Positions 27,321 through 52,473 of a stretch of 64,000 bases of DNA are shown here, piece by piece (positions within the stretch are counted from its first letter, which is position 1; each line of letters opens with the position of its first letter). The notes below the pieces were generated by a model that saw only the letters and a program-made list of their open reading frames with translations, did not search any database and was not told where the DNA came from. The DNA lies in NCBI GenBank assembly GCA_963752475.1, contig CAVVYR010000032.1, positions 15,972-79,971 of the forward strand, given 5' to 3'. This DNA is from an uncultured Chloroflexia bacterium. GTDB lineage: Bacteria > Chloroflexota > Limnocylindria > Limnocylindrales > CSP1-4. The translations under genes and the position numbers were made by a program.

Positions 27321-27370
27321 CCACAAGAGAAGGAGGCCTCAGAAGGAGGCCTCGGGGAAGGGAGACGGAC

Positions 27371-28234: not shown

Positions 28235-28269
28235 GCCATATGGACCGTCAGCCGGTGCAGGTGGTGCGC

Positions 28270-28288
28270 TATCCTGCAAACGATTTCA
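28270..28288 (+). promoter_or_regulatory. -10 (TATCCT) plus LacI-family operator TGCAAACGATTTCA
   Basis: 14-bp pseudo-palindrome matching TGnAAnCGnTTnCA at 28275-28288, overlapping the probable transcription start of the ABC operon. Confidence 0.65.
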
Positions 28289-28366
28289 TCCGAATCGGCA
28301 CGCTCGCATGCAATGGCTGCCGGTCTGCCTCCGAAGTAGCAAGCCCGCAGTAGGAACCAGCACGGC

Positions 28367-30912: not shown

Positions 30913-30927
30913 AGGGGAGGTGCTGAG

Positions 30928-31959: not shown

Positions 31960-32060
31960 AGCTCATGGGCTCATTCGAGAGGAGGTGCCGACCAGCCACA
32001 GCCCAGCCAGGTCCATAAGAGGGACCGCTGATCGTCCAACTTCGATCACATCTGGAGGAG

Positions 32061-33692: not shown

Positions 33693-34722
33693 ATGGACCC
33701 GACCATCAAGGCGGCCGTTGGGTCGCAGCGGTGTGGAGGTGACGCTGCTCGGGCTCGGCGGCGCCACCTACGGCTCGATCTACCGCGAGGTCAGCGAGCG
33801 CGAAGCGCTCGACGCCATCGATGCTGCCTGGGACGCGGGCATCCGCTACTTCGACACCTCGCCCTGGTACGGCTGTGGCCTCTCGGAGCTGCGCACCGGC
33901 GCCGGCCTGCGCCACCGGCCACGCGACGAGTTCGTCCTTTCGTCCAAGGTGGGCCGCTGCATGGACGCGCGCGAACCCGGGTCCACCCGCAACCTCTCGC
34001 CGTGGGTCGCGCCGGCACCCTTCGATCACTACCACGACTACTCCTACGACGGCATCATGCGCAGCTACGAGCAGTCCCAGCTGCGCCTGGGCATGACCCA
34101 CTACGACGTCGGCGTCATCCACGATCTCGACTTCTGGACGCACCAGACCGAGGAGCGGGTGCAAGGCCACCTCGAGGCGCTGGAGTCGAGCGGCTGGCGA
34201 GCGCTCGAGGAGCTGCGTCGAGACGGTCTGCTCAAGGCCATCGGGGCGGGCATCAACGAGCTGGGCTTGATGGAGCGCTTCCTGGCCTTCTGCGAGCCCG
34301 ACTTCTGGCTCGTGGCCATGCCCTATACGCTGCTCCGCCAGGAGATGCTCGACGGTGAGTTCGACATCTGCGCCCGCCACGGCATCAGCGTCATCATCGG
34401 TGCGCCGTACCAGTCGGGCATCCTGGCCACCGGCGCCGTGCCCGGTGCACGCTGCGACTACCGCCCAGCCACGGAGGATGAGCTGTCCGCGGTGCGCCGG
34501 ATCGAGGACGTCTGCGCTCGACACGAGGTGCCCCTGCCGGCGGCAGCGCTGCAGTTCGTGGTGGGCCATCCGGTCGTCGCCTCGGTCATCCCGGGAGCCG
34601 CGTCCGCGGCACAGGTCGAGCGCAACGTGGCTACCTTCCGCCACCCCATCCCGGCGGACCTATGGGCCGAGCTGAAGACGGAGGGCCTGCTGCGGGAAGA
34701 TGCGCCGGTCCCTGCTTCGTGA
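33693..34722 (+). CDS. Aldo/keto reductase, D-threo-aldose 1-dehydrogenase (L-fucose dehydrogenase)-like; one extra base near 33710
   Basis: Motifs YFDTSPWYG.GLSE, LSSKVGR, DYSYDGIMRS.E.S..RLG and IHD. The likely start MDPTIK-RPLGRSG at ATG 33693 needs one base removed; the alternative start is 33661. Confidence 0.85.
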
Positions 34723-34730
34723 AGGGGACC

Positions 34731-35561
34731 ATGAACGACCGCGACGGCGCCTTGCGGCAAACGGCCGCGGAGCTGCGCGGGAACATCCTGACGATGATCC
34801 ACAGCGCCGGTTCTGGTCATCCTGGTTCGGCCCTCTCGTCTGCCGACCTGTTCACGGTCCTGTACTGGGACGAGCTGAACGTCGACCCCGCGAACCCGCG
34901 CTGGCCGGACCGCGACCGGCTGCTGCTGTCCAAGGGGCACGCCTGCCCAGTGCTCTACGCGTCGCTGGCGATGAAGGGCTACTTCGGCCTGGAGCACCTC
35001 GGCCGACTGCGGCAGATCGACGGCATCCTGCAGGGCCACCCGGACATGAACAAGACCCCTGGGGTCGATTACACCACCGGTTCGCTGGGACACGGCCTTT
35101 CGATCGGCCTGGGCATGGCGCTCGCGGCCCGGCTGGACGAGCGAGCGTATCGGACGTACGTCGTGATCGGCAGCGGCGAGCTGCAGGAGGGCCTGGTGTG
35201 GGAGGCGGCCATGGCCGCGGCCAAGTGGGACTCGGACAACCTCTGCGCCATCGTGGACTACAACGGCCTGCAGCTCGACGGTCGCAACGACGAGGTCATG
35301 CCGCTGGGCGATATCGCGGCCAAGTGGCACGCGTTCGACTGGCACGTCATCGAGTGCGACGGGCACGACATGGCGGCGATCCGCGGGGCTTTCGACCAAG
35401 CGCGACAGACGAGCGGCTGCCCGTCGGTCATCATCGCCCGCACGACCAAGGGCAAGGGCGTCTCGTTCATGGAGCATCAGGTCGGCTGGCACGGTCGGGT
35501 CCCCGACGACGAGCAGTTCCGCCAGGCCATGGCCGAGATCACCGGATCCACGGATGACTAG
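34731..35561 (+). CDS. Transketolase, N-terminal (TPP-binding) subunit
   Basis: Motifs SGHPG, DRLLLSKGHA, LQGHP, TGSLGHG, G(S)GELQEG..WEA, KGKGVSFME and WHG. Confidence 0.92.
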   Translation: MNDRDGALRQTAAELRGNILTMIHSAGSGHPGSALSSADLFTVLYWDELNVDPANPRWPDRDRLLLSKGHACPVLYASLAMKGYFGLEHLGRLRQIDGILQGHPDMNKTPGVDYTTGSLGHGLSIGLGMALAARLDERAYRTYVVIGSGELQEGLVWEAAMAAAKWDSDNLCAIVDYNGLQLDGRNDEVMPLGDIAAKWHAFDWHVIECDGHDMAAIRGAFDQARQTSGCPSVIIARTTKGKGVSFMEHQVGWHGRVPDDEQFRQAMAEITGSTDD

Positions 35562-36510
35562 GTACGCCATGGGGGACGTCCTGCCCACGCGCGTGGCCTA
35601 CGGCGAGGCCCTGCGCGACCTCGGCGAGGTGGACGAGCGGGTCGTGGTGCTGGAAGCGGACATCGGCAAGTCCACACACAGCGCCCTCTTCGGCGCCGCC
35701 CACCCGGAGCGCTACTTCAACGTGGGCATCGCCGAGCAGAACGAGATGGGCGTGGCCGCCGGGCTGGCGAGCTGTGGCAAGGTCGCCTTCGTCTCCACCT
35801 ACGCCGTCTTCGCCAGCATGCGCGCCTGCGAGCAGATCCGGACCTTCGTGGCCTACCCGCGAGCCAACGTCAAGGTCTGCCCCAGCCACGGGGGCCTCAC
35901 CCCCGGCAACGACGGCCCCACACACCAGGCCACCGAGGACCTCGGCATCATGCGTACGATCCCCAACATGACGGTGTGCATGCCGACCGATGCGGTGATG
36001 GCGTACAAGGCCGTCTTCGCGGCGGCGGAGCTCGAGGGCCCGCTCTATCTGCGCCTCACGCGTGACCCGGTGCCGGTGGTCTACGACGACGAACTCGACT
36101 TCGCCTTCGGTAAGGCCATCGTGCTGCGGACCGGGACCGAGGCCACGATCGTGGCCAACGGCGACATGGTCGTCCAGGCCCTCCAGGCAGCAGAGCGTCT
36201 GGCCGCGGACGGCATCGACGTCACGGTCATCGACATGCACACGATCAAGCCGCTCGACGAGGCCTGCCTCCTCGAGCACTGCACGGGCAAGCGGTTCGTC
36301 GTCAGTGCCGAGGACCACCAGATCAACGGCGGTCTCGGCAGCGCTGTCGCCGAGTTCCTCGCCGAGCGTTGCCAGGTGCCCATGAAGCGCATCGGCCTAC
36401 GCGACACGTTCGCTGAGTCCGGGCCGTACCTCGAGCTGCTCAGGAAGTACGGACTGGACGCGGGCGCCATCGAGCGTGCCGTGCGCGACGGACTGGCGGG
36501 CACGAGATGA
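35554..36510 (+). CDS. Transketolase, C-terminal subunit
   Basis: Motifs GIAEQN, RACEQIR, DGPTHQ, YLRL.R, TIKPLD, EDH...GGLGSAV and D.FAESG. Confidence 0.92.
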   Translation: MTRYAMGDVLPTRVAYGEALRDLGEVDERVVVLEADIGKSTHSALFGAAHPERYFNVGIAEQNEMGVAAGLASCGKVAFVSTYAVFASMRACEQIRTFVAYPRANVKVCPSHGGLTPGNDGPTHQATEDLGIMRTIPNMTVCMPTDAVMAYKAVFAAAELEGPLYLRLTRDPVPVVYDDELDFAFGKAIVLRTGTEATIVANGDMVVQALQAAERLAADGIDVTVIDMHTIKPLDEACLLEHCTGKRFVVSAEDHQINGGLGSAVAEFLAERCQVPMKRIGLRDTFAESGPYLELLRKYGLDAGAIERAVRDGLAGTR

Positions 36511-37269
36511 TGCGGTCGTCGGCGAGCTTCAGCGGCCAGGCCGTGCTCGTGACCGGCGCCGGCAGCGGCATCGGCGCGACCATCGCGCGGGTGTTCGCGG
36601 AGCGTGGGGCCCACGTCGCCATCAACGATGTCGACGCTGAGGCTGCAGAGCGGGTGGCTGACCGAGCTGCTCGAGCGCGGCCTGAGCGCGGCGCCGTTCG
36701 TGGCGGACGTGACGCTCGAGCCGGCGGTGCGGGCGATGTGCGACGAGGTCGTCGAGACCTTCGGTTCGCTGGACATCCTGGTCAACAACGCCGGCGTCCT
36801 GGGCCTCACGCCGACCGAAGAGCTGGAGGTCGATGCCTGGGCTCGCACGCTGGCGGTCAACCTCACCGGGGCCTTCATCTGCTGCCGGGCCGTGTTGCCA
36901 CCGATGCGTCGGCAGGGCCGCGGCCGGATCGTCAACATCTCGTCGCTGGCCGGAGAGTCCGGCGGCATCGCGGCCGGCGCAGACTACGCCGCCTCCAAGG
37001 GCGGCCTGCTCACGCTCACCCGTAAGCTGGCGCTGGAAGTCGCAGCGCATGGCATCACCGTCAACGCCATCGCACCGGGCACCACGCGGACGCCCATGAT
37101 CGAAGCCCTGTCACCGGTCGACCGGGACATGCTGCGGGCGAAGATCCCCGTCGGGCGCTTGGGGGAGCCTGAGGATGTCGCCTACGCCGTCTGCTTCCTG
37201 GCGAGTGACGAGGCGTCCTTCATCACCGGCGCCACCCTGGACGTGAACGGCGGGCTCCTGATGCGATGA
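36507..37269 (+). CDS. SDR family oxidoreductase (FabG-like), split by one extra base at about 36661
   Basis: TGAGSGIG in ORF 36507; NNAG, YAASK and LDVNGG in ORF 36604. They join as AERVAD-ELLERG. Confidence 0.85.
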
Positions 37270-37297
37270 GGTGCTGAACGAAGGTGGAGGGATCTCG

Positions 37298-38059
37298 ATG
37301 ACAGGACGGCTCGAGGGCAAGGCCATCATCGTCACCGGCAGCTCGAGAGGGATCGGTCGCAGCTGCGCCCTTCGCTGCGCCGAAGCCGGAGCGCGCGTGG
37401 TGGTGCACGGGCGGACCGCCAGTGACGAGCTCGAGGCCAGCGTCTCGCAGATCCGCGAACGGGGCGGGGTGGCCGTCGGCGTCAGTGGCGACGTCTCGAT
37501 CCGGGCGGACGTCGAGCGCATCGTGGCCGAGAGCACGGCCGCGCTGGGCCCGCTCGATGGCCTCGTCAACAACGCCGGCATCAGCTACTTCATCGACTTC
37601 CTGGAGGTCACCGACGAGCAATGGGAGGCGCTGATGGCCGTCAATGCCAAGGGTCCCTTCCTCATGACGCAGGCGGTCGCGCGGACGATGATCGAGGCCG
37701 GACGGCCGGGTCGGATCTGCAACGTGACCTCGATCTCCGGCCAGAAGGCGACGAACCCGCAGCAGGTGCCCTACTGCACGTCCAAGGGCGCGGCCAACAT
37801 GTTCACCAAGGTCGCGGCGGTGGCCCTCGGTCCGCACGGCATCACCGTCAATGCCGTGCTGCCCGGCACCATCGAGACCGACATCAACCGCGAGGTCCTC
37901 GCCGCCGAAGGCACGGTCGAGGCCATCACCGAGGCCACGCCGCTGGGGCGCCTGGGCGACGTCGAGGACGTGGGGCAGGCCGTGGTCTACCTCATGTCGG
38001 ACGAGGCCCGCTGGGTCACCGGTGCCCTGCTCGCGGTGGACGGCGGCTTCATCGCCTGA
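37298..38059 (+). CDS. SDR family oxidoreductase (L-rhamnose/glucose 1-dehydrogenase-like)
   Basis: Motifs TGSSRGIG, NNAG, YCTSK and PGTIETDIN. Confidence 0.88.
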   Translation: MTGRLEGKAIIVTGSSRGIGRSCALRCAEAGARVVVHGRTASDELEASVSQIRERGGVAVGVSGDVSIRADVERIVAESTAALGPLDGLVNNAGISYFIDFLEVTDEQWEALMAVNAKGPFLMTQAVARTMIEAGRPGRICNVTSISGQKATNPQQVPYCTSKGAANMFTKVAAVALGPHGITVNAVLPGTIETDINREVLAAEGTVEAITEATPLGRLGDVEDVGQAVVYLMSDEARWVTGALLAVDGGFIA

Positions 38060-38247
38060 CGTCCGCCGTCTGTCGGACGCGACCGCGCCTGATCATCGCT
38101 GCCCGACCCGCTTCTCCATGGTCGGGCTCGAGACCGCCCTGTCCCGGACCTGATCGGATCGTCCGTGCGTTGGGTGATAATGCCGATGGTCGCTCGCGGG
38201 GCTCGACCCCAGGCTGAGCGCTAGACAACGATGTCACTGGAGGCGAC

Positions 38248-38442
38248 ATGCAGATCACAGCAGACCGGGAAACGTGCACGGCGGCCGGACAGTGCGCGAG
38301 CGTAGCGGCGGCGCTCTTCGACCAGGACGACGATGGCGTCGTGGTGCTCCTCAAGGAGGAACCGAGTGAGGCCGAGGAGCCCCTGGCGCGCCGGGCGGCC
38401 AGCCTCTGCCCGGCGCGCGCGATCACCATCGTCGAAGACTAG
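38248..38442 (+). CDS. [3Fe-4S] ferredoxin (P450-associated type)
   Basis: CTAAGQC...CP motif (CxxAxxC). GGAGG RBS. Confidence 0.92.
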   Translation: MQITADRETCTAAGQCASVAAALFDQDDDGVVVLLKEEPSEAEEPLARRAASLCPARAITIVED

Positions 38443-39636
38443 GTGCCGATCGACGCGTCGGCCCGCGTCGTCATCGTGGGTGCATCCGTCGGCGGCCTGA
38501 CCACGGCGGAGGCACTGCGCCACGAAGGGTTCAAGGGGCCCATCACGCTGGTCGGCGATGAGGCTCGACTGCCCTACCGCCGACCGCCGCTCTCCAAGCA
38601 GGTACTGACGGGCGAGTGGCCGCCTGAGCGCACGTACCTCCTCGATGCGGGCGGGTTGGACGACCTCGATCTGCGGATGATGCTGGGCAGCCGCGCAAGC
38701 GAGCTGGACGTCACTGCTCACACATTGGTGGTCGACGGCGAGCGAGTCCCGTACGACACCCTCGTGGTCGCGACTGGCGTCAAGGCTCGTCAGCTCCCAG
38801 GCGTGGGTGACGCCCGGGGCATCCACACGCTGCGAACGCTCGACGATGTCGATGCCATCCGTACCCGCCTGGAGACGGCGGCTCGAGTCGCCGTGGTCGG
38901 CGCCGGCGTGCTGGGATCCGAGATCGCCTCGGCGGCGCGTCACCTCGGCCTCCAGGTCGTCCTCATCGGCCGCACGAAGAGCATGCGCATGGGACAGGTC
39001 GGCGACCACCTGTCCGAGCTCATCAAGGAGCTGCACCGGGCCAACGAGGTAGACGTCCGAACCGGTGTGGGCGTGGTCGACGTCTCCGGGTCGGGCCATC
39101 AGCAGGTGGTAGAGCTGTCGAGCGGCGAGGTCGTGGAGGCGGATCTCGTGATCGTCGCGATCGGCGGGATCCCGTCGACCGACTGGCTCTCCGGCTGCGG
39201 CCTCGACCTCTCCGATGGCGTGGTCTGTGATGCCTCTGGACTCGCAGCACCGGACGTGTATGCCGTCGGCGACGTGGCCCAATGGCGCCGACAGGCCGGA
39301 ACCCCGGTGCCCCGCGCCGAACACCATCTCAATGCGGTCGAGCAGGCGCTGGCCGTCGCCCACCTGCTCGTGACCGGAGAGCCACCGGGCGCCGTCGTAC
39401 CCTTCTTCTGGTCCGAACTCCACGACACGCGGATCCAGGCCTACGGCCGTTTCGCCGCTGACTCGCCGCTCGAGGCCATCGCGGGCGACATGGGCGATCG
39501 ACGGTTCGTCGCAGCGTCGCGCGACGGCGACCGGACCACCGGCGTGGTGGGCTGGAACATGCCTCGAGACTTCCGCGACGCCCGCGCCCTCGTCGATGCC
39601 TCCACTCCCCCACCGCACCAAGGAGTCCCGTCGTGA
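38443..39636 (+). CDS. NAD(P)H-ferredoxin reductase
   Basis: Motifs IVGASVGG, PY.RPPLSK, ATG, GAGVLGSE, YAVGDVA and PFFWS. Confidence 0.92.
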   Translation: MPIDASARVVIVGASVGGLTTAEALRHEGFKGPITLVGDEARLPYRRPPLSKQVLTGEWPPERTYLLDAGGLDDLDLRMMLGSRASELDVTAHTLVVDGERVPYDTLVVATGVKARQLPGVGDARGIHTLRTLDDVDAIRTRLETAARVAVVGAGVLGSEIASAARHLGLQVVLIGRTKSMRMGQVGDHLSELIKELHRANEVDVRTGVGVVDVSGSGHQQVVELSSGEVVEADLVIVAIGGIPSTDWLSGCGLDLSDGVVCDASGLAAPDVYAVGDVAQWRRQAGTPVPRAEHHLNAVEQALAVAHLLVTGEPPGAVVPFFWSELHDTRIQAYGRFAADSPLEAIAGDMGDRRFVAASRDGDRTTGVVGWNMPRDFRDARALVDASTPPPHQGVPS

Positions 39637-40874
39637 CCGACAAGAAGACCGAGCCCATCGATGACACGCCGAAGTGCCCGATCCCCTACGAACCACCGGT
39701 TTCGGTTCCCGTCGACGGGACCCCGCTGACACCATCGCCCTGCCTCGCGGCGTACCGGGACGTGGCCGCGGCCGTGCCGCTTCGCTATGCCGATGGCCAC
39801 GAGGGCCTGTTGACCACCACCGCGGACTTCGCGATGGCGGTCCTGACCGATCCGCGCTTCAGCCTCAAGCAGTGGCGCTTCCCGCTCGAGGCGCAGGCTG
39901 GCGCTGCCCACAGCCAGGTCGAGGACGACCCCATCGACGCTGCCGCGGAAGAGGCACTCGAGGCCTGCAACCTGCTGAAGATGGACGCCCCCGAGCACAG
40001 CCGGCTGCGCAAGGCGATCACCGGTCGCCTGTCCGTGCGCGCCGTGCGCAACTACGAGGACCGAGTACGCGAGATCGTCGCACGCCAGCTCGCCCGCTTC
40101 ATGGCGCTCGGCTCGCCGGCCAACCTGACCACCGAGTACGCCGACCCGATCAGCGCCCACGACCACTGCCACGCGCTGGGCGTCCCGGACGACCTGGTCC
40201 CCGGCTTCTTCGACACGTTCGTTCGGCTGAGCCCAAGGCAGCAGAAGCACGACTACGTGCGGGAGGTGGTAGGGGCCAAGCGCGACGACCTCGGCGAGGA
40301 CATCATCAGCGACCTCATCCGCAGCGACCTGACGGACGCGGAGATCGAAGGACAGCTCGTGCTGCTCATGAACGCCGGCCGGGACACCGTGGCCTACATG
40401 ATCGCGACAGGCGCGAACATGCTCCTGAAGAACCCGGAGCAGCTGGACGCCCTGCGCGACGAGCCTGAGCTCATCGAGACGGGCGTGGAGGAGATCCTGC
40501 GCTACGGCGCCATGTTCGTGACGCTGTTCCCGCGTACCGCCACTGAGGATGTCGAGATCGACGGGGTGAGGATCCCGAAGGGCACCACGGTCTCCGCCTC
40601 GCCGGTGGCCGCTAACCGCGACCCGCACCGCTGGGAACACCCAGATGAGCTCGACCTGCGACGCGATGCCTTCGGGCACCTCTCGTTCGGCTCCGGCCAG
40701 CATGGCTGCGTGGGCCAGCAGTTCGCCCGGCTCCAGGTGAAGGAGGCGCTCAGGCAGCTCATCGCCGCGATGCCCGACCTGCGCTTGGTCAAGGCCCAGC
40801 AGGACGAGCCCATCCGACCGTTCCCCTCGGAGTTGCCGACCTATCACGCCGGCGACGTCATCGTGGCCTGGTAG
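39633..40874 (+). CDS. Cytochrome P450
   Basis: D.PEH.RLR, I-helix AGRDT, ExxR (EEILR), ANRDP and heme motif FGSGQHGCVG. Confidence 0.95.
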   Translation: MTDKKTEPIDDTPKCPIPYEPPVSVPVDGTPLTPSPCLAAYRDVAAAVPLRYADGHEGLLTTTADFAMAVLTDPRFSLKQWRFPLEAQAGAAHSQVEDDPIDAAAEEALEACNLLKMDAPEHSRLRKAITGRLSVRAVRNYEDRVREIVARQLARFMALGSPANLTTEYADPISAHDHCHALGVPDDLVPGFFDTFVRLSPRQQKHDYVREVVGAKRDDLGEDIISDLIRSDLTDAEIEGQLVLLMNAGRDTVAYMIATGANMLLKNPEQLDALRDEPELIETGVEEILRYGAMFVTLFPRTATEDVEIDGVRIPKGTTVSASPVAANRDPHRWEHPDELDLRRDAFGHLSFGSGQHGCVGQQFARLQVKEALRQLIAAMPDLRLVKAQQDEPIRPFPSELPTYHAGDVIVAW

Positions 40875-40883
40875 GAGCGAGAG

Positions 40884-41858
40884 ATGCAGTACCGCACGTT
40901 CGGCCGCACGGGCTGGCAGGTGAGTGAGATCGGGTTCGGGGCGTGGCAGCTCGGCGGCCAGTGGGGCGAGGTCGACGACGACGCCTCCGTGGCCGCGCTC
41001 CTGCACGCCTACGAGCTGGGTGTCAACTTCGTCGACACCGCGCAGATGTATGGCACGGGCCACAGCGAGGAGGTCGTCGGGCGCTCGCTGCGCGAATGGC
41101 GTGGGGGCAAGATCTACGTCGCCACCAAGATCCAGCCTCTCAAGTGGCCCGACCCCGACGACCCCGACCCGGACATGCGAGGTCGCTACCCCGGATGGCA
41201 TCTGCGCGAGGGCACCGAGGCCGCGCTCAGCCGTCTCGGCCTCGAGCGGATCGACCTCATGCAGCTCCATTGCTGGCTCGAAGACGGGCTCACCTCGCTG
41301 GACTGGCTGGAGGTCCTCGACGACCTCCGGAACGAAGGCAAGATCGACCACATCGGTGTGTCCATCCGCGACTACAAGCCGCACGAGGGGGTCCGGCTGG
41401 CCCGCTACGGGCTCGTGGATTCGCAGCAGGTCATCTACAACATCTTCGAGCAGCGGGCCCAGGAGGAACTCTTCCCGGCCGGCGAGACGACCGGGACGGC
41501 GATGATCGCGCGGGTCCCGCTCGATTCCGGTGCGCTGTCGGGCGCATGGACGCCCGAAACCTACGCGAGCTGGCAGCCAGGCAGCCAGCAGCATTCGATG
41601 TTCCGCGGCGAGCGGTTCGGCGAGACGCTGGCCCGGGTCGAGGCCCTCAAGGCGGTCTGCGCTCCGTACTACCCGACGCTCGCCGAGGCCGCCACCCGCT
41701 TCGCCCTGAGCGAGCCTGGCGTCTCGACCATCATCCCCGGCATGCGCTCGCGTGGACGCGTGGACGAGAACGTCGCGTACAGCGACGGCCAGCCCTTCCC
41801 GGCCGAGCTGAAGGCCGCACTCGGAGCGCACGGATGGATCCGCGACTACTACCGATGA
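40884..41858 (+). CDS. Aldo/keto reductase
   Basis: Motifs SEIGFGAW, DTAQMYG.GHSE, ATK, QLH and YNIFEQ. Confidence 0.92.
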   Translation: MQYRTFGRTGWQVSEIGFGAWQLGGQWGEVDDDASVAALLHAYELGVNFVDTAQMYGTGHSEEVVGRSLREWRGGKIYVATKIQPLKWPDPDDPDPDMRGRYPGWHLREGTEAALSRLGLERIDLMQLHCWLEDGLTSLDWLEVLDDLRNEGKIDHIGVSIRDYKPHEGVRLARYGLVDSQQVIYNIFEQRAQEELFPAGETTGTAMIARVPLDSGALSGAWTPETYASWQPGSQQHSMFRGERFGETLARVEALKAVCAPYYPTLAEAATRFALSEPGVSTIIPGMRSRGRVDENVAYSDGQPFPAELKAALGAHGWIRDYYR

Positions 41859-42595
41859 ACGACCCGCGTCCCGAGGACCTCGACCGGCATCGTCTCCAGC
41901 TCCTGCGCCCCCACGAGATCGCGGCGCGACTCGACGAGCGCTCCGTGGTGTTCCTGCCCATGGGCACGCTCGAGTGGCACTCGCGACACCTGCCGGTCGG
42001 CCTTGACGCCCTCAACGCCGAGGGCGTCTGCCTGCGTGCGGCCGCTACGCGCGGCGGGATCGTCTACCCCACCCTCTACTACGGCACCGGGGGCTCGCAT
42101 CGGTCATTCCCGTGGTCGATGATGATGCCGTCGGGCACAGAGATCGAGGCACTCCTGGCGTACTCGCTCGAGCGCCTCGACGAGATGGGTGTCGAGCTGG
42201 CGGTCATGTTCACCGGCCACTTCGCTCCCGAGCAGGTGGCAGTCGTCACGCAGGCAGCCGAGCGGTGGAACGGTCGGGACCGCCGGATGCGCGCCCTTGG
42301 CCTGTCGGTGGATGGCGCGACCGGCCTCGCCATCGCACCCGACCACGCTGGCCGTTTCGAGACGACCCTGCTGCACGCCCACCGTCCGGAGGTCGTGAGC
42401 CCGGAGCTCATCCCGGAGCAGCCAGACGACGAGGCGGGTGAGGATCCGTGGGGCCAGCAGCGATACGACCCCACACACTCGCTCTGGGGTGTGGTCGGCC
42501 CCGACCCGCGCGACTTCGATCCCGCGGACGCCCCGGCGCTATTGGACGGCTGTGTTCGGTGGGTCCTGGCCCAGATCGACGAGGCGGCGAGGTAG
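41855..42595 (+). CDS. Creatininase family amidohydrolase
   Basis: Motifs P.GTLEWHSRHLPVGLD, TGH and DHAGRFET. ATGA coupling to the upstream gene. Confidence 0.85.
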   Translation: MNDPRPEDLDRHRLQLLRPHEIAARLDERSVVFLPMGTLEWHSRHLPVGLDALNAEGVCLRAAATRGGIVYPTLYYGTGGSHRSFPWSMMMPSGTEIEALLAYSLERLDEMGVELAVMFTGHFAPEQVAVVTQAAERWNGRDRRMRALGLSVDGATGLAIAPDHAGRFETTLLHAHRPEVVSPELIPEQPDDEAGEDPWGQQRYDPTHSLWGVVGPDPRDFDPADAPALLDGCVRWVLAQIDEAAR

Positions 42596-42603
42596 TCGCT
42601 CGA

Positions 42604-43473
42604 TCAGATGCGGAAGAAGCGCTCGGCGTTGCCGCTGAACATGGCCGCCTGCTCGGCCTGGCTGAGGTCGGCGATGATGGCCGCATAGGCGTCGATGACG
42701 TCGGGGTAGGACGAGAACAGCCGGTCGACCGGCCAGTTGGTGCCGAAGATCGTGCGCTCGACCCCGAACGACTCGATCGCATGGAGCACCAGCGGGCGCA
42801 TCGAGTCGACCGTCCAGTGAGGGTCACCCATGCCCAGGGCCGAGATCTTGACGATGACGTTGGGCGCTTCCGCGAGGGACGTCATCCCGGCGCGCCAGAA
42901 GGCCAGGTAGTCGTCGTCCCGACGTAGCGGGAACCCGGCGTGGTCGAGCGAGATGGTGGTGTCGGGGAAGGCCAGCGCGAGGTCCTTGATCTGGGCCAGC
43001 GTCTCCGGCCGTGGATCGACGCAGTAGACGAGGTCGTGCTCGCGCAAGGAGGCGAAGCCGCGTCGCCACGCGGGGTCGACGAGGTACTCGCCCTCGCCGA
43101 AGTCGCGTACGCCGCGCATGTTGGGGAAGTCGAGGTGCCGGGCGATGACATCGTTCGCATCAGGTTGCGCGAGGTGCACCTCGGCCACGATGCCGTGCGG
43201 ATGACCCAGCCGGTCGGCGAAGGCCTGCAACCAGCGCGTCTCCTCGACGGGATCCGGGGTGCCCACGGCGCACTCGACGTGGATCGACTTGACCACGTTG
43301 CTGAAGCGTGACTCGGCGATCCAGTCATCGGCCCAGTAGCGCTGCGCCTGGATCGGCTCCACGGCCTCGAGGATGTGGTGCTTGACGCCCGGCCGTAGCC
43401 AACCGTATTCGAGCGTGGGGTGCTGCAGATCGTAGAAGTGGAGGTGCGTGTCGATGAACGGGATCGCGGCCAC
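42604..43473 (-). CDS. Amidohydrolase_2 family sugar lactonase (L-fucono/rhamnono-lactonase-like)
   Basis: Motifs DTHLHF, LDHAG, KISA, FGTNWPV and GNAERFF. GAGGAG RBS before GTG 43473. Confidence 0.82.
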
Positions 43474-43594
43474 GATCCTCCTCGGCTGCGGACGTGTCAC
43501 CCATCGTAGTCCGCCGATGCAGAGGGCTGCTGGGCCCGCTAGGGCGGGTCATTCGGCCACTTGCGTTTCCTATCGAACGGTTACTATCTGGTTC

Positions 43595-45202
43595 ATGTCC
43601 GAAACGGAGGAAGAGGGCGTGAGGACGCCTGAAGGACTGAGGGACGACGCGGCTGAGGCCAGCCCTGTGTCGGATCCGGCTGCCCTCGCGCCGGTGATCG
43701 AGATGCGCGACGTCTCCAAGCGCTACGGCGAGATCCAGGCCCTCGATGACGTCTCGCTCGAGCTCTACCCCGGCGAGATCCACGCCCTCCTGGGCGAGAA
43801 CGGCGCGGGCAAGTCCACGCTCATCAAGGTCATGACCGGCGTGGTCCAGCCGGACATCGGCGACATCCTCATCGATGGTGAGAAGGTCCACATCGGCAGC
43901 GCCTTCGACGCGCAGACGTACGCCGTCGCGGCCATCTACCAGGAGCCCATGATCTTCCCGGACCTGACGGTGGCGGAGAACATCTTCATCGGCCATCGCG
44001 ATCGCGGCCGTATCGTCAACAAGGGCAAGATGCGCGATGAAGCCGCGGCCGTGCTCGCCCGCCTGGACGTCCACCTCGATGTGCAGGCCCCGGCCTCGAC
44101 GCTGACGCTGGCGCAACAGCAGACGGTGGAGATCGCCAAGGCGCTCTCGCTCAACACGCGCGTGCTCATCATGGACGAGCCCACCGCCTCGCTCTCGGCG
44201 CACGAGGTCGCACAGCTCTTCGTCATCATCGGGCGGCTCAAGGCTGAAGGCGTGGCCATCCTCTTCATCTCCCACCGCCTTGAAGAGGTCTTCGAGCAGG
44301 CCGACCGCATCACGGTCATGCGTGACGGCGCCTGGATCTCCACCACGCTGCGCGCGGACATGACCATCGACGAGGCCATCCGCCAGATGGTCGGCCGCGA
44401 GGTCGTGGAGTTCTACACACGCACCCAGTCGAACCCCGGCGAGGTCATCCTGCAGGTCGAGGACCTGGGCGTGGAGGGCGCGTTCGAGGGCGTCAACTTC
44501 GAGTTGCGCAAGGGCGAGGTGCTGGGCTTCGCCGGCCTTGTCGGAGCGCGGCGCACAGACGTCGGCCTGGCGCTCTTCGGCATCCATCCCGCCGATACCG
44601 GGCGCATCCTGCTCGACGGCCAGGAAGTGCACATCAAGAGTTCCAAGGACGCGCTGGACCTGGGTATCGCCTACACCACCGAGGACCGGCGCGGGCACGG
44701 GCTCATCTTCAACCAGTCCATCGCGGCCAACATCACGCTGCCCTCGCTCGACCGCTATCTCAACAAGCTGCGCCTCATCCGCACACAGCTGGAGCGAGCG
44801 ACGGCGCTGGACTTCCGCGAGCGCCTGTCGATCCGTGCCCCCGGCGTGGATACGCCCGCGTCGTCGCTCTCGGGCGGCAACCAGCAGAAGGTCGTGCTCA
44901 GCAAGTGGCTCGACACCAAGCCTCGCATCCTCATCCTCGATGAGCCCACGCGCGGCATCGACGTGGGCGCCAAGGTGGAGGTCCACCATCTCGTCGACGA
45001 GCTGGTCAGGGAAGGCATCGCCATCATCCTCATCAGCTCGGACCTGCCTGAGCTGCTGCCCATGAGCGACCGCATCCTGGTCATGCGTGAAGGCCGCCAG
45101 ATGGACCTCATCGATGGTGCTGACGCGACATCGGAGCAGGTGCTCACCCTGGCCATGGGCCAGGCCGAGACGGTGCCCGCTGACGAAGGGGCCGGGGCAT
45201 GA
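43595..45202 (+). CDS. Monosaccharide ABC transporter ATP-binding protein (RhaT-like)
   Basis: Motifs [14 protein letters not shown] and LSGGNQQK. Confidence 0.95.
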
Positions 45203-46266
45203 TCGACTCCGTGCTGCGGCGACTGCGCCCGAGCCAGGTGCGTGAGGTCATCACGCTCCTGATCATCGTCGGCATCGTCATCTTCTTCTCGACCCAGATC
45301 GACAACTACCTGACCGGCCGGACGTTCAACCGCGTCACCACCGAGTTCCCCATCATCGCGGTCGTGGCCGTGGGCCAGCTGCTGGTGGTGCTGACACGCA
45401 ACCTCGACCTGTCGGTCGGCTCACAGGTGGCCCTCGTGGCCTGGTCCACCGGCTTCATCGCCACCGAGTTCAACGGCATCAACCCCGTCGTGCTCGTGGT
45501 CCTGGGCATGGGCATGGGCGTGATCATGGGCGGCATCAACGGCCTCATCGTGGCCTTCGGCCGCGTGCCGGCCATCATCACCACGCTGGCCACTCTGGCC
45601 ATCTATCGCTCGTTCCTCATCACCATGGCCAGCGCGCAGACGATCGAGACGCGCGGCCTGCCCGGCTGGATCGTCAGCTTCCCGGGCACCACCCTGTTCG
45701 AGTTCGGCAAGGCCGACGTCCGACTCATCTTCCTTGTCGCGCTCATCGTGGTGGCGGTGGTGCAGCTGATGCTCACATTCCTGCCCTACGGTCGTCGGCT
45801 CTACGCCATCGGCTCCAACCCTGGTGCGGCCAGCATGGTCGGTCTACCCAAGCAGCGCGATGTGTTCCTGGCCTACCTCGGTTGTGGCGCGCTCGCAGGT
45901 CTGGGTGGCTTCCTCCAGATGGCCAAGTTCGGGACCATCACCGTGGACTCCGCACGCGGCCTGGAGATGGCCGTCATCGCAGCGGTCGTCGTGGGCGGAG
46001 CGAACATCTTCGGTGGATCAGGTTCTGCCATCGGTGTGATGCTGGGCGCGATCCTCATCGCCGTACTCGACCTCTCGCTGGCCCGCTGGATCGGGATCAG
46101 CGACTTCACCCGTGACTTCCTGCTGGGCATGCTCATCCTGCTGGCAGTCGCCGGCGACGTGGTCATCAACAAGCGCCTGCAGAAGGTCTGGATGCGAGCC
46201 CGCCGCCGGGACGAGGCCAGAGCCGGCCCTTCCGCCGGCGCCCAGGCGGGAGGCCCCGATGGATAG
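45199..46266 (+). CDS. Monosaccharide ABC permease (RhaP-like)
   Basis: Motifs [15 protein letters not shown] and GGANIFGG.G. Confidence 0.92.
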
Positions 46267-47359
46267 CGCCCCGACCATGGTCCAGCGGATCACGTCCCGC
46301 CTACGCTCATGGGAAGGCCTGTTGCTGGCCATCCTCATCCTCGTGATCGCACTGAACACGTTCCTGGCACCCAACTACCTCTTCGGCGACCTGGGCAGCC
46401 AGAACCAGGTCAACCTGTGGTGGATCAGCATCGAGAAAGCCATCGTCGTGCTGGCCATGGCCTTCGTCATCATCAATGGCGAGATCGACCTCTCGGTGGC
46501 CTCGGTCATGGGTCTGTCGGCGGTCGTGGTGGCCGTGCTCTGGGAACAGGGCGTGGGCATCGAGATCGGCATCCTCGTGGCCCTGCTGGTAGGCCTGGCC
46601 GTGGGCCTCTTCAATGGCTTCTGGGTGGCGGTCGTGGGCCTGCCCTCGCTGGTGGTGACGCTGGCCGGCTTGATCGGCATCCGCGGCCTGGCCTTCATGC
46701 TCATCGAGGGCCGGTCCATCGGCAACCAGGAAACGGCCTTCCCCACCTGGTTCGAGGACATGGGCCAGCAGCCGGTGAGCGAGCTCATCGGGGTGCTCGA
46801 CGCGATCCCGGTCATCGATCGCGTGCCCTTCGCGATGTTCGCCTACTTCGGCCTGCTCATCCTGGCCGGGATCGTATTGGGCAAGTCCGGGTTCGGCCGG
46901 CGCACGTACGTCATCGGCAGCAACAAGGACGTGGCTCAGTACTCGGGCGTGAATGTGCGACGACACAAGTTCCTGATCATGATGATCAGCGCGGTGACGG
47001 CCGCCCTCGCGGGTGTGCTCCTGGCCTCGCACCTGGGCGCGGTGCGTGGCAGCACGGCCTTCGGCTGGGAGTTGGACATCATCACCATCGTGCTGCTGGG
47101 CGGGGTCAGTATCTTCGGTGGCTCCGGCACCATGCTCGGCGTCTTCCTCTCCACCATGCTCGTGCTCAACATCCGCAACGGCCTTGGCCTCAACAACGTG
47201 CCCGGCCACACCCAGACCGGCGTCGTGGGCGCCTTGCTCATCCTCTCGGTGCTGCTACCCAACATGATCGAGTCCTACCAGGGCTGGGCCCGTCGCCGCT
47301 CGCTTGCCCGCGCTGCCCGTGCTTCCCGCGCTTCGCCGGACCGTGGCGAGCAGACATGA
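46259..47359 (+). CDS. Monosaccharide ABC permease (RhaQ-like)
   Basis: Motifs RSWEGLL, GEIDLSVAS and WELDIITIVLLGGVSIFGG. Confidence 0.92.
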   Translation: MDSAPTMVQRITSRLRSWEGLLLAILILVIALNTFLAPNYLFGDLGSQNQVNLWWISIEKAIVVLAMAFVIINGEIDLSVASVMGLSAVVVAVLWEQGVGIEIGILVALLVGLAVGLFNGFWVAVVGLPSLVVTLAGLIGIRGLAFMLIEGRSIGNQETAFPTWFEDMGQQPVSELIGVLDAIPVIDRVPFAMFAYFGLLILAGIVLGKSGFGRRTYVIGSNKDVAQYSGVNVRRHKFLIMMISAVTAALAGVLLASHLGAVRGSTAFGWELDIITIVLLGGVSIFGGSGTMLGVFLSTMLVLNIRNGLGLNNVPGHTQTGVVGALLILSVLLPNMIESYQGWARRRSLARAARASRASPDRGEQT

Positions 47360-47466
47360 TGTAGCCGATCGGACAGCGGACTGGCGCTGGCCTACCCAGC
47401 GCCGTAGGATGGCCCTAGAAGTCGGGCACTAGCCCGAGGGGAAACCAACTTCAGGAGGAGGACTTC

Positions 47467-48528
47467 ATGCGCAGAACCATTGCTGTCGCGGCCGCAGCCG
47501 CCCTGACCGTCTCGGCGTTCGCCGCTCCGGTCACCGCGCAGGATGCGGTCATGGCAGAACCTGGCGAAGACGTCAACATGCTCTTGCTGCCCAAGTTCCT
47601 GGGCATCATCGTGTTCGACCAGGCCAACGAGGGTGCACAGGAAGCCGCCACCGAGCTGGGCATTCCGACCGCTCCCACCTTCACCGGCCCAACGGCCGAG
47701 AACAGCGTCGCGGGCCAGATCGAGCAGGTCACCAACGCCCCCACCCAGGGCTTCGACGTGGTCATGCTCTCGAACAACGCTGGCGACCAGATCGCTCCGG
47801 TGGCTGCCGCGGCCCAGGAAGCCGGCACCAAGATCGTGACCTGGGACTCGCCCATCCCGTCCGCCGAGGGCGAGGACGTCTTCGTCGCCCAGGTCGACTT
47901 CAACGACATGGGCAAGACCATGGCCGACATGTCCCTCTCGCTGGTGGGCGAGGACGGCGGCCAGGTCGGTATCCTCTCGGCATCGCCTGACGCGGCCAAC
48001 CAGAACGCCTGGATCGCGGCCTACGAGGACGCTATCGCAGCCGATCCGGACACCTACGGCGGCATCGAGAACGTCGAGACCGTCTACGGCAACGACAAGT
48101 CCGAGGACAGCTACAACGCTGCCATCGCGCTCGTCGACAAGTATCCGGACCTCGAAGTCATCATGGCTCCCACGACCGTCGGCATCGCCGCGGCCGCCAA
48201 GGCCATGCAGGACGAGGGCCTCTGCGAGGACGTCGCCGTCTCCGGTCTGGGCCTGCCCAGCGAGATGGTCGACTTCACCATGAACGGCTGCGCGCCCGAG
48301 TTCGCGCTGTGGTCATTCGTGGACCTCGGCTACCTGAGCACGTACGTGAGCTACCTGCTCGCGACCGGCGCCCTCGAGGGTGTCGAAGGCGAGACCTTCA
48401 ACGCCGGGCGCATGGGTGACTTCACCATCGAGAAGGACCCGACCCGACCGGACGTGGATGCTCTCCGCGTCCTCATGGGCCCCTTCACGATCTACACGCC
48501 TGAGAACGTCGAGGCAGCCGCCGGCTGA
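47467..48528 (+). CDS. Rhamnose-type ABC substrate-binding protein (RhaS-like)
   Basis: Signal peptide, [27 protein letters not shown] and LWSFVDLGY. Confidence 0.88.
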
Positions 48529-48540
48529 CCCCGCACATCC

Positions 48541-48581
48541 GACGACCCCGGTCCGCAGCAGCGGGCCGGGGTCGTTCTTTG
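48541..48581 (+). terminator. Rho-independent terminator between convergent genes
   Basis: ACGACCCCGGTCCGC-AGCA-GCGGGCCGGGGTCGT followed by TCTTT. Confidence 0.75.
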
Positions 48582-48641
48582 ATTCCCGGGACCTTGAGCC
48601 CCGAGCGTCGGGTAGCCCTGGTACCCGAGCGTCCGGCGGCG

Positions 48642-49739
48642 CTAGTAGACGCCGTGCGTCTTGACGGCCTCGATCATGGCCTCGACGTTCTCCAGCGGCG
48701 TGTCGGCCTGGAGGATGTGCGCCGGCGCGACCATGTAGCCGCCGCCGGGGCCAAGGGCCTCGATCTTGGCCTTGACGTCCGCCTCGATCTCCTCCGGTGT
48801 TCCGTTCGGGAGCAGCTGCTGCTGGTCGATGGCCCCCCAGAACGAGAGCTCGGAGCCGAACTGCTCCTTGAGCTCGTGCGGTTCGTGGCCGGGGACGTTG
48901 GGCTGCACCGGATTGAAGACATCCAGGCCGATCTCGATGAGGTCCGGCAGGATCGGCGCGATGGCGCCGTCGCAGTGGTACATGACCATGACGTCGGGGT
49001 TGACCGAGCGGAACTCCGAGAAGACCTCCGCCATACGCGGCTTGAAGATACGTCGCCACATGTCCGGCGAGACCATCATGCCGTTCTGGGCCCCGAAGTC
49101 GTCTCCGGTCCAGATGCCATCCACCCCGAGCTCCACGAGCTGCTTGCCGATATCGATGCTCCAGCGCATGGTGCGATCGATGAGGGCCTCGATGTAGTCC
49201 TCGCCCATGGCCATGTCGGTCATGAACTTCTGCAGCCCGGTCATGTGCCAGGCCATCTCGAACATCGTCAGCTCGACGTCGCCGATGATGAAGTAGTCGC
49301 CCTTGTACTGCGCGATGTAGCGCTTGGCGTCCTCGAAGCGGGCGCTGTCGAACGGGTCCGGGAAGGGCAGGTCACGGACCTCCTGAGCTGTCGTGCACGA
49401 CTCGAGCGGGCCCTTGACCACGTCGTACCAGGCGATGCCCATCTTCATCTTCATGCCGAACTCGTTGACGATGCAGCCGTCATCGGTCTGCTCGGGTTCG
49501 TATCCAGCGGGCACGCCGCCTCCGACGAGGACGCAGTCGCTGCCCATGGCCACGCGGATCTCATTGCCGGACGTGCGGTACTTCAGGTCCTCGTAGTAGT
49601 TCGGCTGCCAGCCGATGGGGATATCAAGCTTGTCGCTGAACGCTTCGAGCAGCGGCCGCGACAGGTCGAACTCGACCGGCACACGGTCGGGTTGGCCGTC
49701 GCGGCCCAACGCCCGCTGCACCCGTTCTCGAGAGTTCAC
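48642..49739 (-). CDS. Uroporphyrinogen decarboxylase / MtaA-CmuA methyltransferase family protein
   Basis: N-terminal NSRERV..A....PDRVP, GDDFG.Q, HCDG, NPVQP, FWGAID.Q and H.LQ.DTP.EN. Start GTG 49739 after AGGAAGGAG. Confidence 0.85.
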   Translation of the reverse strand: MNSRERVQRALGRDGQPDRVPVEFDLSRPLLEAFSDKLDIPIGWQPNYYEDLKYRTSGNEIRVAMGSDCVLVGGGVPAGYEPEQTDDGCIVNEFGMKMKMGIAWYDVVKGPLESCTTAQEVRDLPFPDPFDSARFEDAKRYIAQYKGDYFIIGDVELTMFEMAWHMTGLQKFMTDMAMGEDYIEALIDRTMRWSIDIGKQLVELGVDGIWTGDDFGAQNGMMVSPDMWRRIFKPRMAEVFSEFRSVNPDVMVMYHCDGAIAPILPDLIEIGLDVFNPVQPNVPGHEPHELKEQFGSELSFWGAIDQQQLLPNGTPEEIEADVKAKIEALGPGGGYMVAPAHILQADTPLENVEAMIEAVKTHGVY

Positions 49740-49882
49740 GCTGACTTCGCTCCTTCCTGATGCTGGCCTTCTGCCCACCCTAGACGTCGGTGGTGCTGAG
49801 GCATCCTGCCAGCCAGCCCGATAGCAGCATCCGGAAGGACCCATAGCCGCCGGCAACGGGTGTCTTCGAGCGCGCCGTGCTG

Positions 49883-51262: not shown

Positions 51263-51338
51263 CGAGTGTCTCCACTCTACGCCCGGAGCTGCGTTCGGTC
51301 ATCGGGCCGAGCGGCCCCGCGGCAGGGGCCATCGGTGG

Positions 51339-52445: not shown

Positions 52446-52473
52446 GGGGCCAGCGTAGCCCGCCGGCGGCGAC

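Follow-up and report, generated by a model that had tools for sequence, protein, structure and literature searches.

A class-I cytochrome P450 cassette in L-rhamnose loci of Actinomycetota and Limnocylindria: a candidate O-methyl-rhamnose demethylase system

CYP236A2 (P450ZoGa, PDB-IDs: 6G5Q and 6G5O) of marine Flavobacteriia works with a ferredoxin and a ferredoxin reductase and is specific for 6-O-methyl-D-galactose, as stated in the accessible part of its description (PMC6292453). A dehydrogenase that is conserved beside CYP236A is needed for growth on this sugar, and its role is left unexplained in the accessible text of PMC10033563. CYP236A is the only family in the searchable literature that has been shown to demethylate a free sugar, and it acts on one red-algal sugar. 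The subject of the present analysis is a different P450 system, which is found in a 64,000-nucleotide stretch of DNA (the window; contig CAVVYR010000032.1 of assembly GCA_963752475.1) from an uncultured bacterium of the Limnocylindria (Chloroflexota). Its source genome, G000, is metagenome-assembled, 4.25 Mb in size, and 88.8% complete. The system is a cassette of five genes that are tightly packed on the + strand (38248-42595) inside of a sugar island and encode a ferredoxin, a ferredoxin reductase, the P450, an aldo-keto reductase (AKR2), and a creatininase-fold hydrolase. Homologous P450s recur beside L-rhamnose genes, and the cassette probably removes a substituent of a rhamnose-type sugar, most likely a methyl group.

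The cassette resembles the CYP236A2 system in being a three-component class-I P450 in a sugar-utilization locus. In both cases an accessory NAD(P)-dependent oxidoreductase adjoins the P450, which is a zinc-dependent alcohol dehydrogenase there (accessible text of PMC10033563) and an aldo-keto reductase here. The proposed chemistry is also alike, as an O-demethylation to free sugar and formaldehyde is predicted for the cassette. The two systems differ in the lineage of the P450 and in their hosts, which here are Actinomycetota and Chloroflexota from soil and freshwater. The partner pathway is that of L-rhamnose instead of galactose/porphyran, and a creatininase-fold hydrolase and an AraC-family regulator are additionally present.

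CYP105/107 P450s (StvP2, EryF, PikC, OleP, CYP105A1) are nearest in sequence and fold and use the same type of redox partners. They tailor polyketides, vitamin D, and drugs and are encoded in biosynthetic clusters or alone, whereas the clade described here is found in rhamnose catabolic loci. MocDEF of Sinorhizobium demethylates the rhizopine 3-O-methyl-scyllo-inosamine by means of an oxygenase, a ferredoxin, and a reductase that are encoded next to a CUT2 importer. It differs from the cassette in its oxygenase, which is of the di-iron or Rieske type and not a P450, and in its cyclitol substrate, and it has no known sequence relation to the cassette. The hydrolase of the cassette shares the fold family and all six metal/catalytic positions with the creatininase/MftE/ArfB/IolN family (PF02633); it differs in scoring far below the curated cut-offs and in its new context of P450, AKR, and rhamnose genes. 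The actinobacterial/Chloroflexus-type L-rhamnose cluster is made up of RhaI, RhaB, RhaEW, RhaM, RhaFGHJ, and a LacI-type regulator in the accessible text of Rodionova et al. 2013 (PMC3870299). Exactly these genes recur beside the P450 clade, with the P450 cassette being an add-on in some clusters only. The term “P450” occurs 0 times in the accessible text of this comparative-genomics paper on rhamnose regulons. A search of open-access full text, outside of subscription journals and supplements, turned up no account of P450s in rhamnose clusters, of the catabolism of methyl-rhamnose, or of a P450, an AKR, and a creatininase in one cluster. The P450 clade in rhamnose loci is undescribed in the open-access literature; a sugar-demethylating P450 with ferredoxin and ferredoxin reductase is already known from CYP236A.

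Homologues were collected by searching 5.8 billion proteins with the P450. About 18 proteins were found at an identity of at least 72%, followed by a large group of 46-57% identity, with members from cultured Microbacterium, Curtobacterium, Lacisediminihabitans, and Nonomuraea. An alignment of 44 homologues was used to fetch 80 metagenome loci, and a scan of genome contigs with the single P450 query gave 3 close relatives only. The gene context of the actinobacterial homologues comes from metagenome contigs. P450 loci are numbered with L and genomes with G; L007 is the window's own sequence, L006 (also L003 and L102) lies on contig C13 of G014, and L091 belongs to G006. In the window, which has a high GC content (0.64-0.72), the real reading frames were chosen by third-position GC together with Pfam and NCBIfam matches. 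Neighborhoods were analyzed in two ways. In the guided analysis, the proteins of the window were searched by tblastn on 83 loci. In the unguided analysis, the open reading frames (ORFs) of the 83 loci were clustered all-against-all, and one representative of each recurrent cluster was assigned with Pfam. For counting, a P450 at least 39% identical and a flank of at least 5 kb were required, which left 48 of 77 loci with L007 excluded; collapsing P450s that are at least 97% identical reduced these to 42 non-redundant loci. RhaI, RhaM, RhaEW, and the α-L-rhamnosidase family GH78 were taken as rhamnose-specific genes, with a reach of 10 kb. The loci were gathered through the P450, so all co-occurrence counts are conditional on its presence.

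The guided search recovered ferredoxin in 40 of the 83 loci, reductase in 37, AraC in 31, LacI in 24, hydrolase in 24, and AKR2 in 23. A protein that had first appeared as “xylose-isomerase-like” in L005 has homologues in 14 loci and is RhaI, as it reaches 537 bits against an NCBIfam cut-off of 531 (597 bits for the homologue in L016). Transketolase, AKR1, and the Amidohydro_2 protein of the window were each found in 0 of the 83 loci. The recurrent neighbors in the unguided analysis are GH78, RhaM (PF05336), RhaI, RhaEW, an FGGY kinase, CUT2 and CUT1 importers, LacI, AraC, AKR2, and the hydrolase. RhaEW is a 678-aa aldolase-SDR (short-chain dehydrogenase/reductase) fusion, whose copy in L066 scores 996 bits against a cut-off of 568. 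At least one rhamnose-specific gene is present in 28 of the 42 loci (GH78 15, RhaI 13, RhaM 10, RhaEW 8), and a double RhaM in L008 raises this number to 29. Among the same loci, ferredoxin occurs in 30, reductase in 27, a sugar ATP-binding cassette (ABC) importer in 27, AraC in 24, LacI in 21, AKR2 in 19, and the hydrolase in 18, compared to 0 for transketolase, 0 for Amidohydro_2, and 1 for a URO-D-like gene. By comparison, G000 has about five places with rhamnose genes in its 4.25 Mb, so that about 2-3% of the genome lies within 10 kb of one. Rhamnose genes are found in every large P450 subclade, in varying gene orders, at GC contents of 0.41-0.72, and in two phyla. Of the three outgroup P450 loci with more than 6 kb of sequence (L081, L082, L086), none has a rhamnose gene.

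With RhaI and RhaEW of curated grade beside the P450, the clade has its place in L-rhamnose loci, and judged by these neighborhoods it appears as an accessory part of such loci in many Actinomycetota and a few Limnocylindria. A link of the cassette to rhamnose catabolism is likely. The initial annotation had already placed the P450 in a sugar-catabolic locus. The sugar genes that recur beside its homologues agree with this and speak for sugar catabolism and against secondary metabolism. The opposite view, in which a xenobiotic or secondary-metabolite P450 landed in the island by chance, could draw on the insertion and the missing AraC regulator in G000, on the visible flank of L006 in G014 (GlnA-ADI-GDH), and on the 13 of 42 loci that have no rhamnose gene. 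It is nonetheless extremely improbable, as rhamnose-specific genes in 29 of 42 loci stand against the few per cent expected by chance, the association recurs in varied gene orders and two phyla, and no polyketide synthase, nonribosomal peptide synthetase, or terpene genes are among the recurrent neighbors.

The cassette itself is compact (Table 1). The ferredoxin and reductase genes abut with 0 nt, reductase and P450 overlap by 4 nt, a 9-nt gap separates P450 and AKR2, and AKR2 and hydrolase share a 4-nt ATGA overlap when the hydrolase start is set at the ATG at 41855. All five genes were confirmed with Pfam and NCBIfam, in the spacing that had been given for them before, and a GATAAT sequence proposed as a −10 element near 38177 is present in the preceding spacer. 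A small iron–sulfur ferredoxin and a flavin adenine dinucleotide (FAD)-dependent reductase directly upstream of the P450 make up a class-I (three-component) P450 system. The ferredoxin, presumably of the single-cluster type that serves actinobacterial P450s, shares 86-92% identity with its counterparts in L005 and L006. Within the cassette, conservation is highest for AKR2 (88-93% identity in L004-L008). Against L004 and L008, the dN/dS values of reductase, P450, AKR2, and hydrolase are 0.12-0.27, with 0.22-0.27 for the reductase. These four genes are under purifying selection and are, based on these values, maintained. The order ferredoxin-reductase-P450-AKR2-hydrolase is intact in L004, L005, L006, and L008, whose P450s are 87%, 74%, 92%, and 77% identical, respectively. 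In L005, L006, and L008, a gene for an AraC-family regulator lies divergently upstream of the ferredoxin. NCBIfam models match only the DNA-binding half in two of three AraC neighbors that were compared; the third, in L039, aligns with RhaS/RhaR over most of its length at 69 of 288 bits, and no clue to the ligand was taken from it. The cassette travels as a unit.

Table 1. Cassette genes and flanking features of the window, in order of position.
Feature	Position	Strand	Evidence
Upstream deoxy-sugar genes	21337..33185	+	NCBIfam, all below cut-offs
RhaEW-like aldolase/SDR	21337-23364	+	TIGR02632 296/568
Rhamnulokinase-like FGGY kinase	25761-27320	+	TIGR02627 446/528
Psicose-epimerase-like TIM barrel	~27350-28234	+	
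Importer ABC1 with second RhaS-like binding protein	28367-33185	+	TIGR02637 234/342
AKR1	33661-34722	+	best solved relatives L-galactose dehydrogenases, E 1.7e-28
Split transketolase	34662-35561 and 35554-36510	+	PF00456 1.2e-56 (thiamine pyrophosphate half); PF02779 + PF02780 (second half)
SDR1	36507-37269	+	frameshift near 36640-36660; L091 (G006) orthologue intact
SDR2	ends by 38059	+	best model L-rhamnose 1-dehydrogenase Lra1, 231 bits vs cut-off 400
Spacer SDR2-ferredoxin	38060..38247	+	188 nt; GATAAT at 38176-38181 (sequence read)
Ferredoxin	38248..38442	+	64 aa; Fer4_15 7.2e-11, Fer4_13 2.2e-10 (Pfam); three Cys C10, C16, C54
FAD-dependent ferredoxin reductase	38443..39636	+	Pyr_redox_2 4.6e-54 + Reductase_C (Pfam)
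Cytochrome P450	39633..40874	+	413 aa; PF00067, 90.5 bits vs cut-off 22.8
AKR2 aldo-keto reductase	40884..41858	+	PF00248 1.2e-52
Creatininase-fold metallohydrolase	41855..42595	+	PF02633, 110.7 bits vs cut-off 31.3
Amidohydro_2 lactonase-like	42604..43500	-	PF04909 8e-36; L-fucono-1,5-lactonase 89.5/400; PDB 4dlf 3.8e-14
CUT2 importer ABC2	43448..48528	+	ATPase 43448-45202; permeases 45199-46266, 46112-47359; binding protein 47467-48528
URO-D/MtaA-like	48642..49937	-	PF01208 1.2e-29, 103.9 bits vs 23.9; likely start near 49745; convergent with binding-protein gene

The catalytic motifs of the P450 are intact. The heme-binding cysteine C359 lies in the loop FGSGQHGCVGQ (FxxGxxxCxG), and the ExxR motif is EEILR (E286, E287, R290); both are conserved across the 44 clade members. 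The I-helix sequence AGRDT, which had been noted as unusual, is functionally usual, since it retains the acid-alcohol pair D251-T252. G249 and D251 do not vary among the 44 members, and R250 is kept in at least 90% of them; AGRDT is therefore a signature of the clade and not a defect. The best solved relative is StvP2 (6m4p), with 36% identity, an E value of 9e-59, and a TM-score of 0.83 in the sequence search and Foldseek. CYP105AW5, EryF, PikC, OleP, and CYP105A1 are the other nearest solved P450s, and CYP105/107-type enzymes lead at 26-36% identity. The Foldseek query was an AlphaFold2 model (pLDDT 90.7), for which macrolide and vitamin-D P450s ranked first without a hint to the substrate. 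The CYP236A2 structures 6G5O and 6G5Q appear neither among the 60 best of 401 PDB sequence matches (last E value 2.8e-36) nor among the Foldseek matches listed, so that the assignment as CYP105/107-like and not CYP236-like in the initial annotation is borne out. Members of one CYP family conventionally share 40% identity or more. Even the closest solved protein of any kind falls short of this at 36%, which places the P450 outside of CYP236A; with less than 40% identity to all solved members, the sequences suggest that the clade is a separate CYP family.

The clade P450s are 39-57% identical to that of the window and were split from outgroups of 26-30% identity with full support (100*) in a FastTree of 51 P450s. 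In this tree, the subclade of the window is joined to a Nonomuraea protein within the otherwise actinobacterial clade, with a support of 90 and long branches, which tentatively suggests that the cassette P450 was transferred into Limnocylindria. Its actinobacterial look concerns the history of the P450 gene and not the host. An actinobacterial host was considered and dropped, as a search of G000 for a WhiB gene gave no match. The B-C loop is about 14 residues longer than in StvP2 and contains an extra acid-rich stretch, in which D102 is invariant. In CYP236A2, the B-C loop provides the sugar-binding residues Glu62, Arg66, and Gln70 (accessible text of PMC6292453). The parallel between this loop and D102 of the clade is suggestive only.

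From the anatomy, the intact motifs, the selection on the genes, their mobility as a unit, and the rhamnose-gene link, a substrate and a chemistry can be proposed. Since an undescribed P450 group is found beside rhamnose genes in many bacteria, it probably acts on a rhamnose-type sugar. In the proposed pathway, a decorated rhamnose-type 6-deoxyhexose would enter through the RhaS-like ABC importer. The best candidate would be an O-methyl-L-rhamnose, for instance 3-O-methylrhamnose (acofriose), derived from glycans of algae, cyanobacteria, bryophytes, or bacteria. Electrons from NAD(P)H would be transferred from the reductase to the ferredoxin and subsequently to the P450, which would hydroxylate the methyl carbon. 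The resulting hemiacetal would decompose into L-rhamnose and formaldehyde, and the rhamnose would then be processed by RhaM, RhaI, RhaB, and RhaEW. An independently evolved P450 that O-demethylates methyl-rhamnose and feeds the rhamnose pathway is a tentative proposal, for which the chances seem slightly short of even. 3-O- and 2-O-methylrhamnose are described as widespread in arabinogalactan proteins of bryophytes, ferns, and charophytes, in exopolysaccharides of cyanobacteria and algae, and in those of Accumulibacter, in the accessible parts of the literature. These sources fit the soil, plant-associated, and freshwater origins of the loci.

Methyl ethers shield sugars from ordinary catabolic enzymes, and methylated deoxy-sugars have been reported in cyanobacterial and algal exopolysaccharides, in bryophyte and fern walls, and in bacterial surface glycans. 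If the proposal is right, a separate P450 clade in rhamnose catabolism would point to a general solution for methylated deoxy-sugars and would explain how those of algal, cyanobacterial, and lower-plant glycans are recycled. The full picture would be a second, independently evolved family of carbohydrate-active P450s: a CYP105/107-derived O-methyl-L-rhamnose demethylase that spread in freshwater and soil Actinomycetota, was transferred to Limnocylindria, and has its own AraC sensor and a follow-up pair of AKR and hydrolase. This wider picture is possible but to be held with more reserve than the demethylation itself. The idea is directly testable in the cultured Microbacterium, Curtobacterium, and Nonomuraea that have homologues.

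Several findings weigh against an O-methyl-rhamnose demethylase. In the window, no RhaI, RhaM, or GH78 gene is adjacent, and the local Rha-like genes score below their cut-offs, so that the island itself does not qualify as an L-rhamnose locus; in G000 these genes are found elsewhere, with RhaI on contig C6, RhaM on C19 and C29, and GH78 on C27. The 13 loci without a rhamnose-specific gene within reach belong here as well, several of which are short or end with the contig. The nearest solved relatives of the P450 act on macrolides and other lipophilic molecules, and where GH78 genes abound, the substrate of the P450 could be an aglycone instead. Neither an AKR nor a hydrolase is required for a simple O-demethylation, and yet both are kept in about 18-19 of the 42 loci. 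In 7 of the 42 loci, all of low GC content, the AKR-hydrolase pair is missing, and an NHL β-propeller is encoded after the P450.

With an aglycone as the substrate, rhamnosides would be imported and cleaved inside of the cell by GH78, and the P450, the AKR, and the hydrolase would degrade or detoxify a non-sugar aglycone such as a flavonoid or a terpenoid. GH78 is indeed the commonest rhamnose-specific neighbor (15 of 42), and the P450 of low-GC and Curtobacterium-like loci is accompanied by GH78, GH3, an apiosidase-like gene, and CUT1 oligosaccharide importers. The lipophilic polyketides bound by the nearest solved P450s would be in line with such a substrate, and an AKR and a hydrolase would suit its degradation. 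In many loci, however, the cassette is found between LacI and a CUT2 monosaccharide importer with RhaM-RhaI-RhaEW-kinase and without any glycosidase within 10 kb (L016, L025, L042, L036, L030). Moreover, freshwater streamlined actinobacteria, plant-associated Microbacteriaceae, and Limnocylindria would all have to share one aglycone. We regard this route as unlikely.

The GH78-bearing loci show further features. At a GC content of 0.46-0.48 (L043, L044, L049, L050, L056, L058, L059), the P450 stands alone, without an adjacent ferredoxin or reductase. It is located between pknB/PP2C and a GATase gene (then crgA), which is a conserved actinobacterial housekeeping region, and a GH78-GH3-CUT1 cluster follows a few kb further. 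In the low-GC loci L018 (~7100-8800), L034 (7145-8764), and L052, an apiosidase-like gene (PF13204) and a second GH78-like gene lie beside the reductase-P450 pair. The apiosidase and GH78 neighbors hint at pectin of the rhamnogalacturonan-II type or a similar complex glycan as the source of the sugar.

The conserved pair of AKR and creatininase-fold hydrolase would pose a new enzymatic problem. AKR2 carries D51, Y56, K82, and H129, which we take to be the catalytic D-Y-K-H positions. Its best NCBIfam model is YdjG (109 bits, cut-off 550); the matches are confined to generic models of small-aldehyde reductases, and YhdN and IolS are the nearest solved relatives. The hydrolase has E40, H42, D51, H122, H164, and E169, which show no variation among the 21 homologues compared. 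They align with E34, H36, D45, H120, H178, and E183 of creatininase, which are presumably the metal ligands and the catalytic histidine of the Pseudomonas enzyme. Score and binuclear-metal positions place the hydrolase in the creatininase family PF02633, below the NCBIfam equivalog cut-offs for creatininase (60.3/235), MftE (53.1/172), and IolN (27.3/245). The homologue in L016 is likewise below these cut-offs, and a search of the ESM Atlas with the hydrolase returned only generic creatininase clusters. An amidase function in deacylation, as had been suggested for this gene, found no evidence. The AKR and the metallohydrolase are co-inherited helpers that may handle a reactive by-product or a second decoration. 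The creatininase fold family includes a formamide hydrolase, from which the speculative idea arises that the pair oxidizes and hydrolyzes a formaldehyde adduct; this would be a new route of formaldehyde handling.

The pair is also the main attraction of a different oxidation of the rhamnose-type sugar. The P450 could hydroxylate a deoxy position, which would turn a 3,6-dideoxyhexose into a 6-deoxyhexose, or cleave a lactyl or ethyl ether, and AKR and hydrolase would finish the reaction. The neighborhood evidence is shared with the O-demethylation, and the obligatory-looking pair would be better accounted for if further redox chemistry and hydrolysis had to act on the product of the P450. A catabolic P450 of this kind is without precedent, though, and nothing in the present data is specific for it. 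To our knowledge, 3,6-dideoxy and lactyl- or ethyl-ether sugars are far rarer in nature than O-methyl sugars. Such a reaction is distinctly unlikely.

As to the propeller protein, it has about 300 aa, occurs in the actinobacteria-like loci L015, L018, L021, L029, L033, L034, and L074, and shows weak similarity to SGL/lactonase and Vgb-lyase. The NHL propeller may be a functional replacement of the AKR-hydrolase pair.

Within its own lineage, the cassette is rare and mobile. Of 49 genomes of the genus, 3 encode the P450; among 401 sampled genomes of the phylum, G000 itself is the only one with it (0 of the 400 others at E <= 1e-80). A plasmid collection searched with the P450 gave Streptomyces genes of at most 40% identity as best matches and no clade member. 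In G455, which has no P450, ABC2-like genes run straight into the two transketolase genes and the SDR genes (TKT_N-TKT_C-SDR1-SDR2), and a URO-D-like gene is convergent. Genes that adjoin each other in G455 are separated in G000 by the cassette and the Amidohydro_2 gene, so that the cassette of G000 is an insertion next to the RhaS-like importer in the sugar island. It came without its AraC regulator, an orthologue of which was searched for in G000 and not found. In G014, the cassette is located beside GlnA-ADI-GDH with no sugar gene on the visible side; in G006, the transketolase block lies between GDH and ADI and the cassette on another contig. The initial annotation had named a P450 trio apart from sugar genes, inserted independently, as the observation that would speak against a sugar role. 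This is half the case, as the cassette is an independent insertion in G000 and has the flank described in G014, but homologous loci elsewhere are rich in sugar genes.

Gene order in the genus is especially prone to rearrangement in the region GlnA-ADI-(variable)-GDH-(variable) (49883-56676 on the − strand of the window, compared with L006/L102 and L091). The slot beside GDH is filled with TetR and SDR3 and with MFS and URO-D in G000, with the transketolase block in G006, and with AraC and the P450 cassette in G014. On G014:C13 (L003/L006/L102), P450 and reductase are broken into several frames; these may be long-read indel errors, and the apparent decay is unreliable.

The insertion bears on the pathway that had been proposed for the locus as a whole. 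In it, the cassette would remove a decoration from a deoxy or branched sugar, and AKR1, the split transketolase, the SDRs, and the lactonase would continue with oxidation via a lactone or with cleavage by transketolase. All of these genes lie within 16 kb and mostly on one strand. With AKR1 resembling L-galactose dehydrogenase, SDR2 matching Lra1 best, and Amidohydro_2 resembling fuconolactonase, an oxidative 6-deoxy-L-hexose route could be formed. Such an integrated pathway is nevertheless very improbable. Beside homologous P450s, transketolase (0/42), AKR1 (0/83), and Amidohydro_2 (0/42) are missing, and no dehydratase or aldolase of the oxidative route was seen. SDR1 is frameshifted in the window, and transketolase-SDR-SDR occurs without the P450 in 12 genomes of the genus, including the run with ABC2 in G455. 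These P450-free occurrences were found at 75-79% DNA identity with a query that left AKR1 outside. From the former proposal, O-methyl-rhamnose in the list of sugars to be screened is now the leading candidate, and the route through dehydrogenase, lactonase, and transketolase is not supported, with the URO-D-like gene in 1 of 42 loci. Substrates of the inositol, pinitol, or rhizopine type were also considered and dropped, as the conserved partners are rhamnose genes, and an apiose/transketolase route was dropped with transketolase in 0 of 42 loci.

The flanking genes named in the initial annotation (AKR1, split transketolase, two SDRs, lactonase-like protein, Rha-type ABC importer, and UROD/MtaA-family gene) are all present. 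As a correction, the URO-D gene lies on the − strand, and the + strand ORF across it has no family match. The binding protein of ABC2 scores 248 bits on the RhaS model TIGR02637 (cut-off 342), level with the 244.7 bits of the binding protein in L041, which is part of a bona fide rha cluster. With a binding protein that is encoded beside the cassette and a RhaM gene in L008, it shares 66% identity. The true start of the ABC2 ATPase is probably about 225 nt after 43448. The Rha-like genes further upstream rank as paralogue-grade matches because they all fall below the curated cut-offs. Double RhaM proteins are found beside the cassette in L008 (5036-5935, − strand, 299 aa), and a similar pair lies in one 433-aa frame at G000:C29:123141-123758 (− strand).

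The transketolase is truly split: the first protein has the N-terminal thiamine pyrophosphate domain, and the second has the pyrimidine-binding and C-terminal domains. The N-terminal Rossmann part and the remainder of SDR1 are read in different frames; the frameshift could be a real pseudogene or an assembly error. TKT_C and SDR1 (35551-37269 of the window) are inverted relative to TKT_N and SDR2 in nine genomes of the genus (G014:C22, G002:C26, G004:C160, G446:C5, G438:C7, G458:C1, G450:C19, G021:C19, G449:C2). The breakpoints lie at gene borders, and the transketolase halves face each other. G000, G006, and G455 are collinear for the block, and no convincing inverted repeats were found at its borders in the window.

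The URO-D-like protein stays below the MtaA/CmuA cut-off (TIGR01463, 82.4/235.4), and no corrinoid-protein gene was noticed near it. A URO-D-like gene adjoins the cassette in L004 and lies beside ABC1 and the transketolase block, without a P450, in G455. In L005 (3872-6406, − strand), it is located between RhaI and the ABC genes on one strand in an operon-like arrangement.

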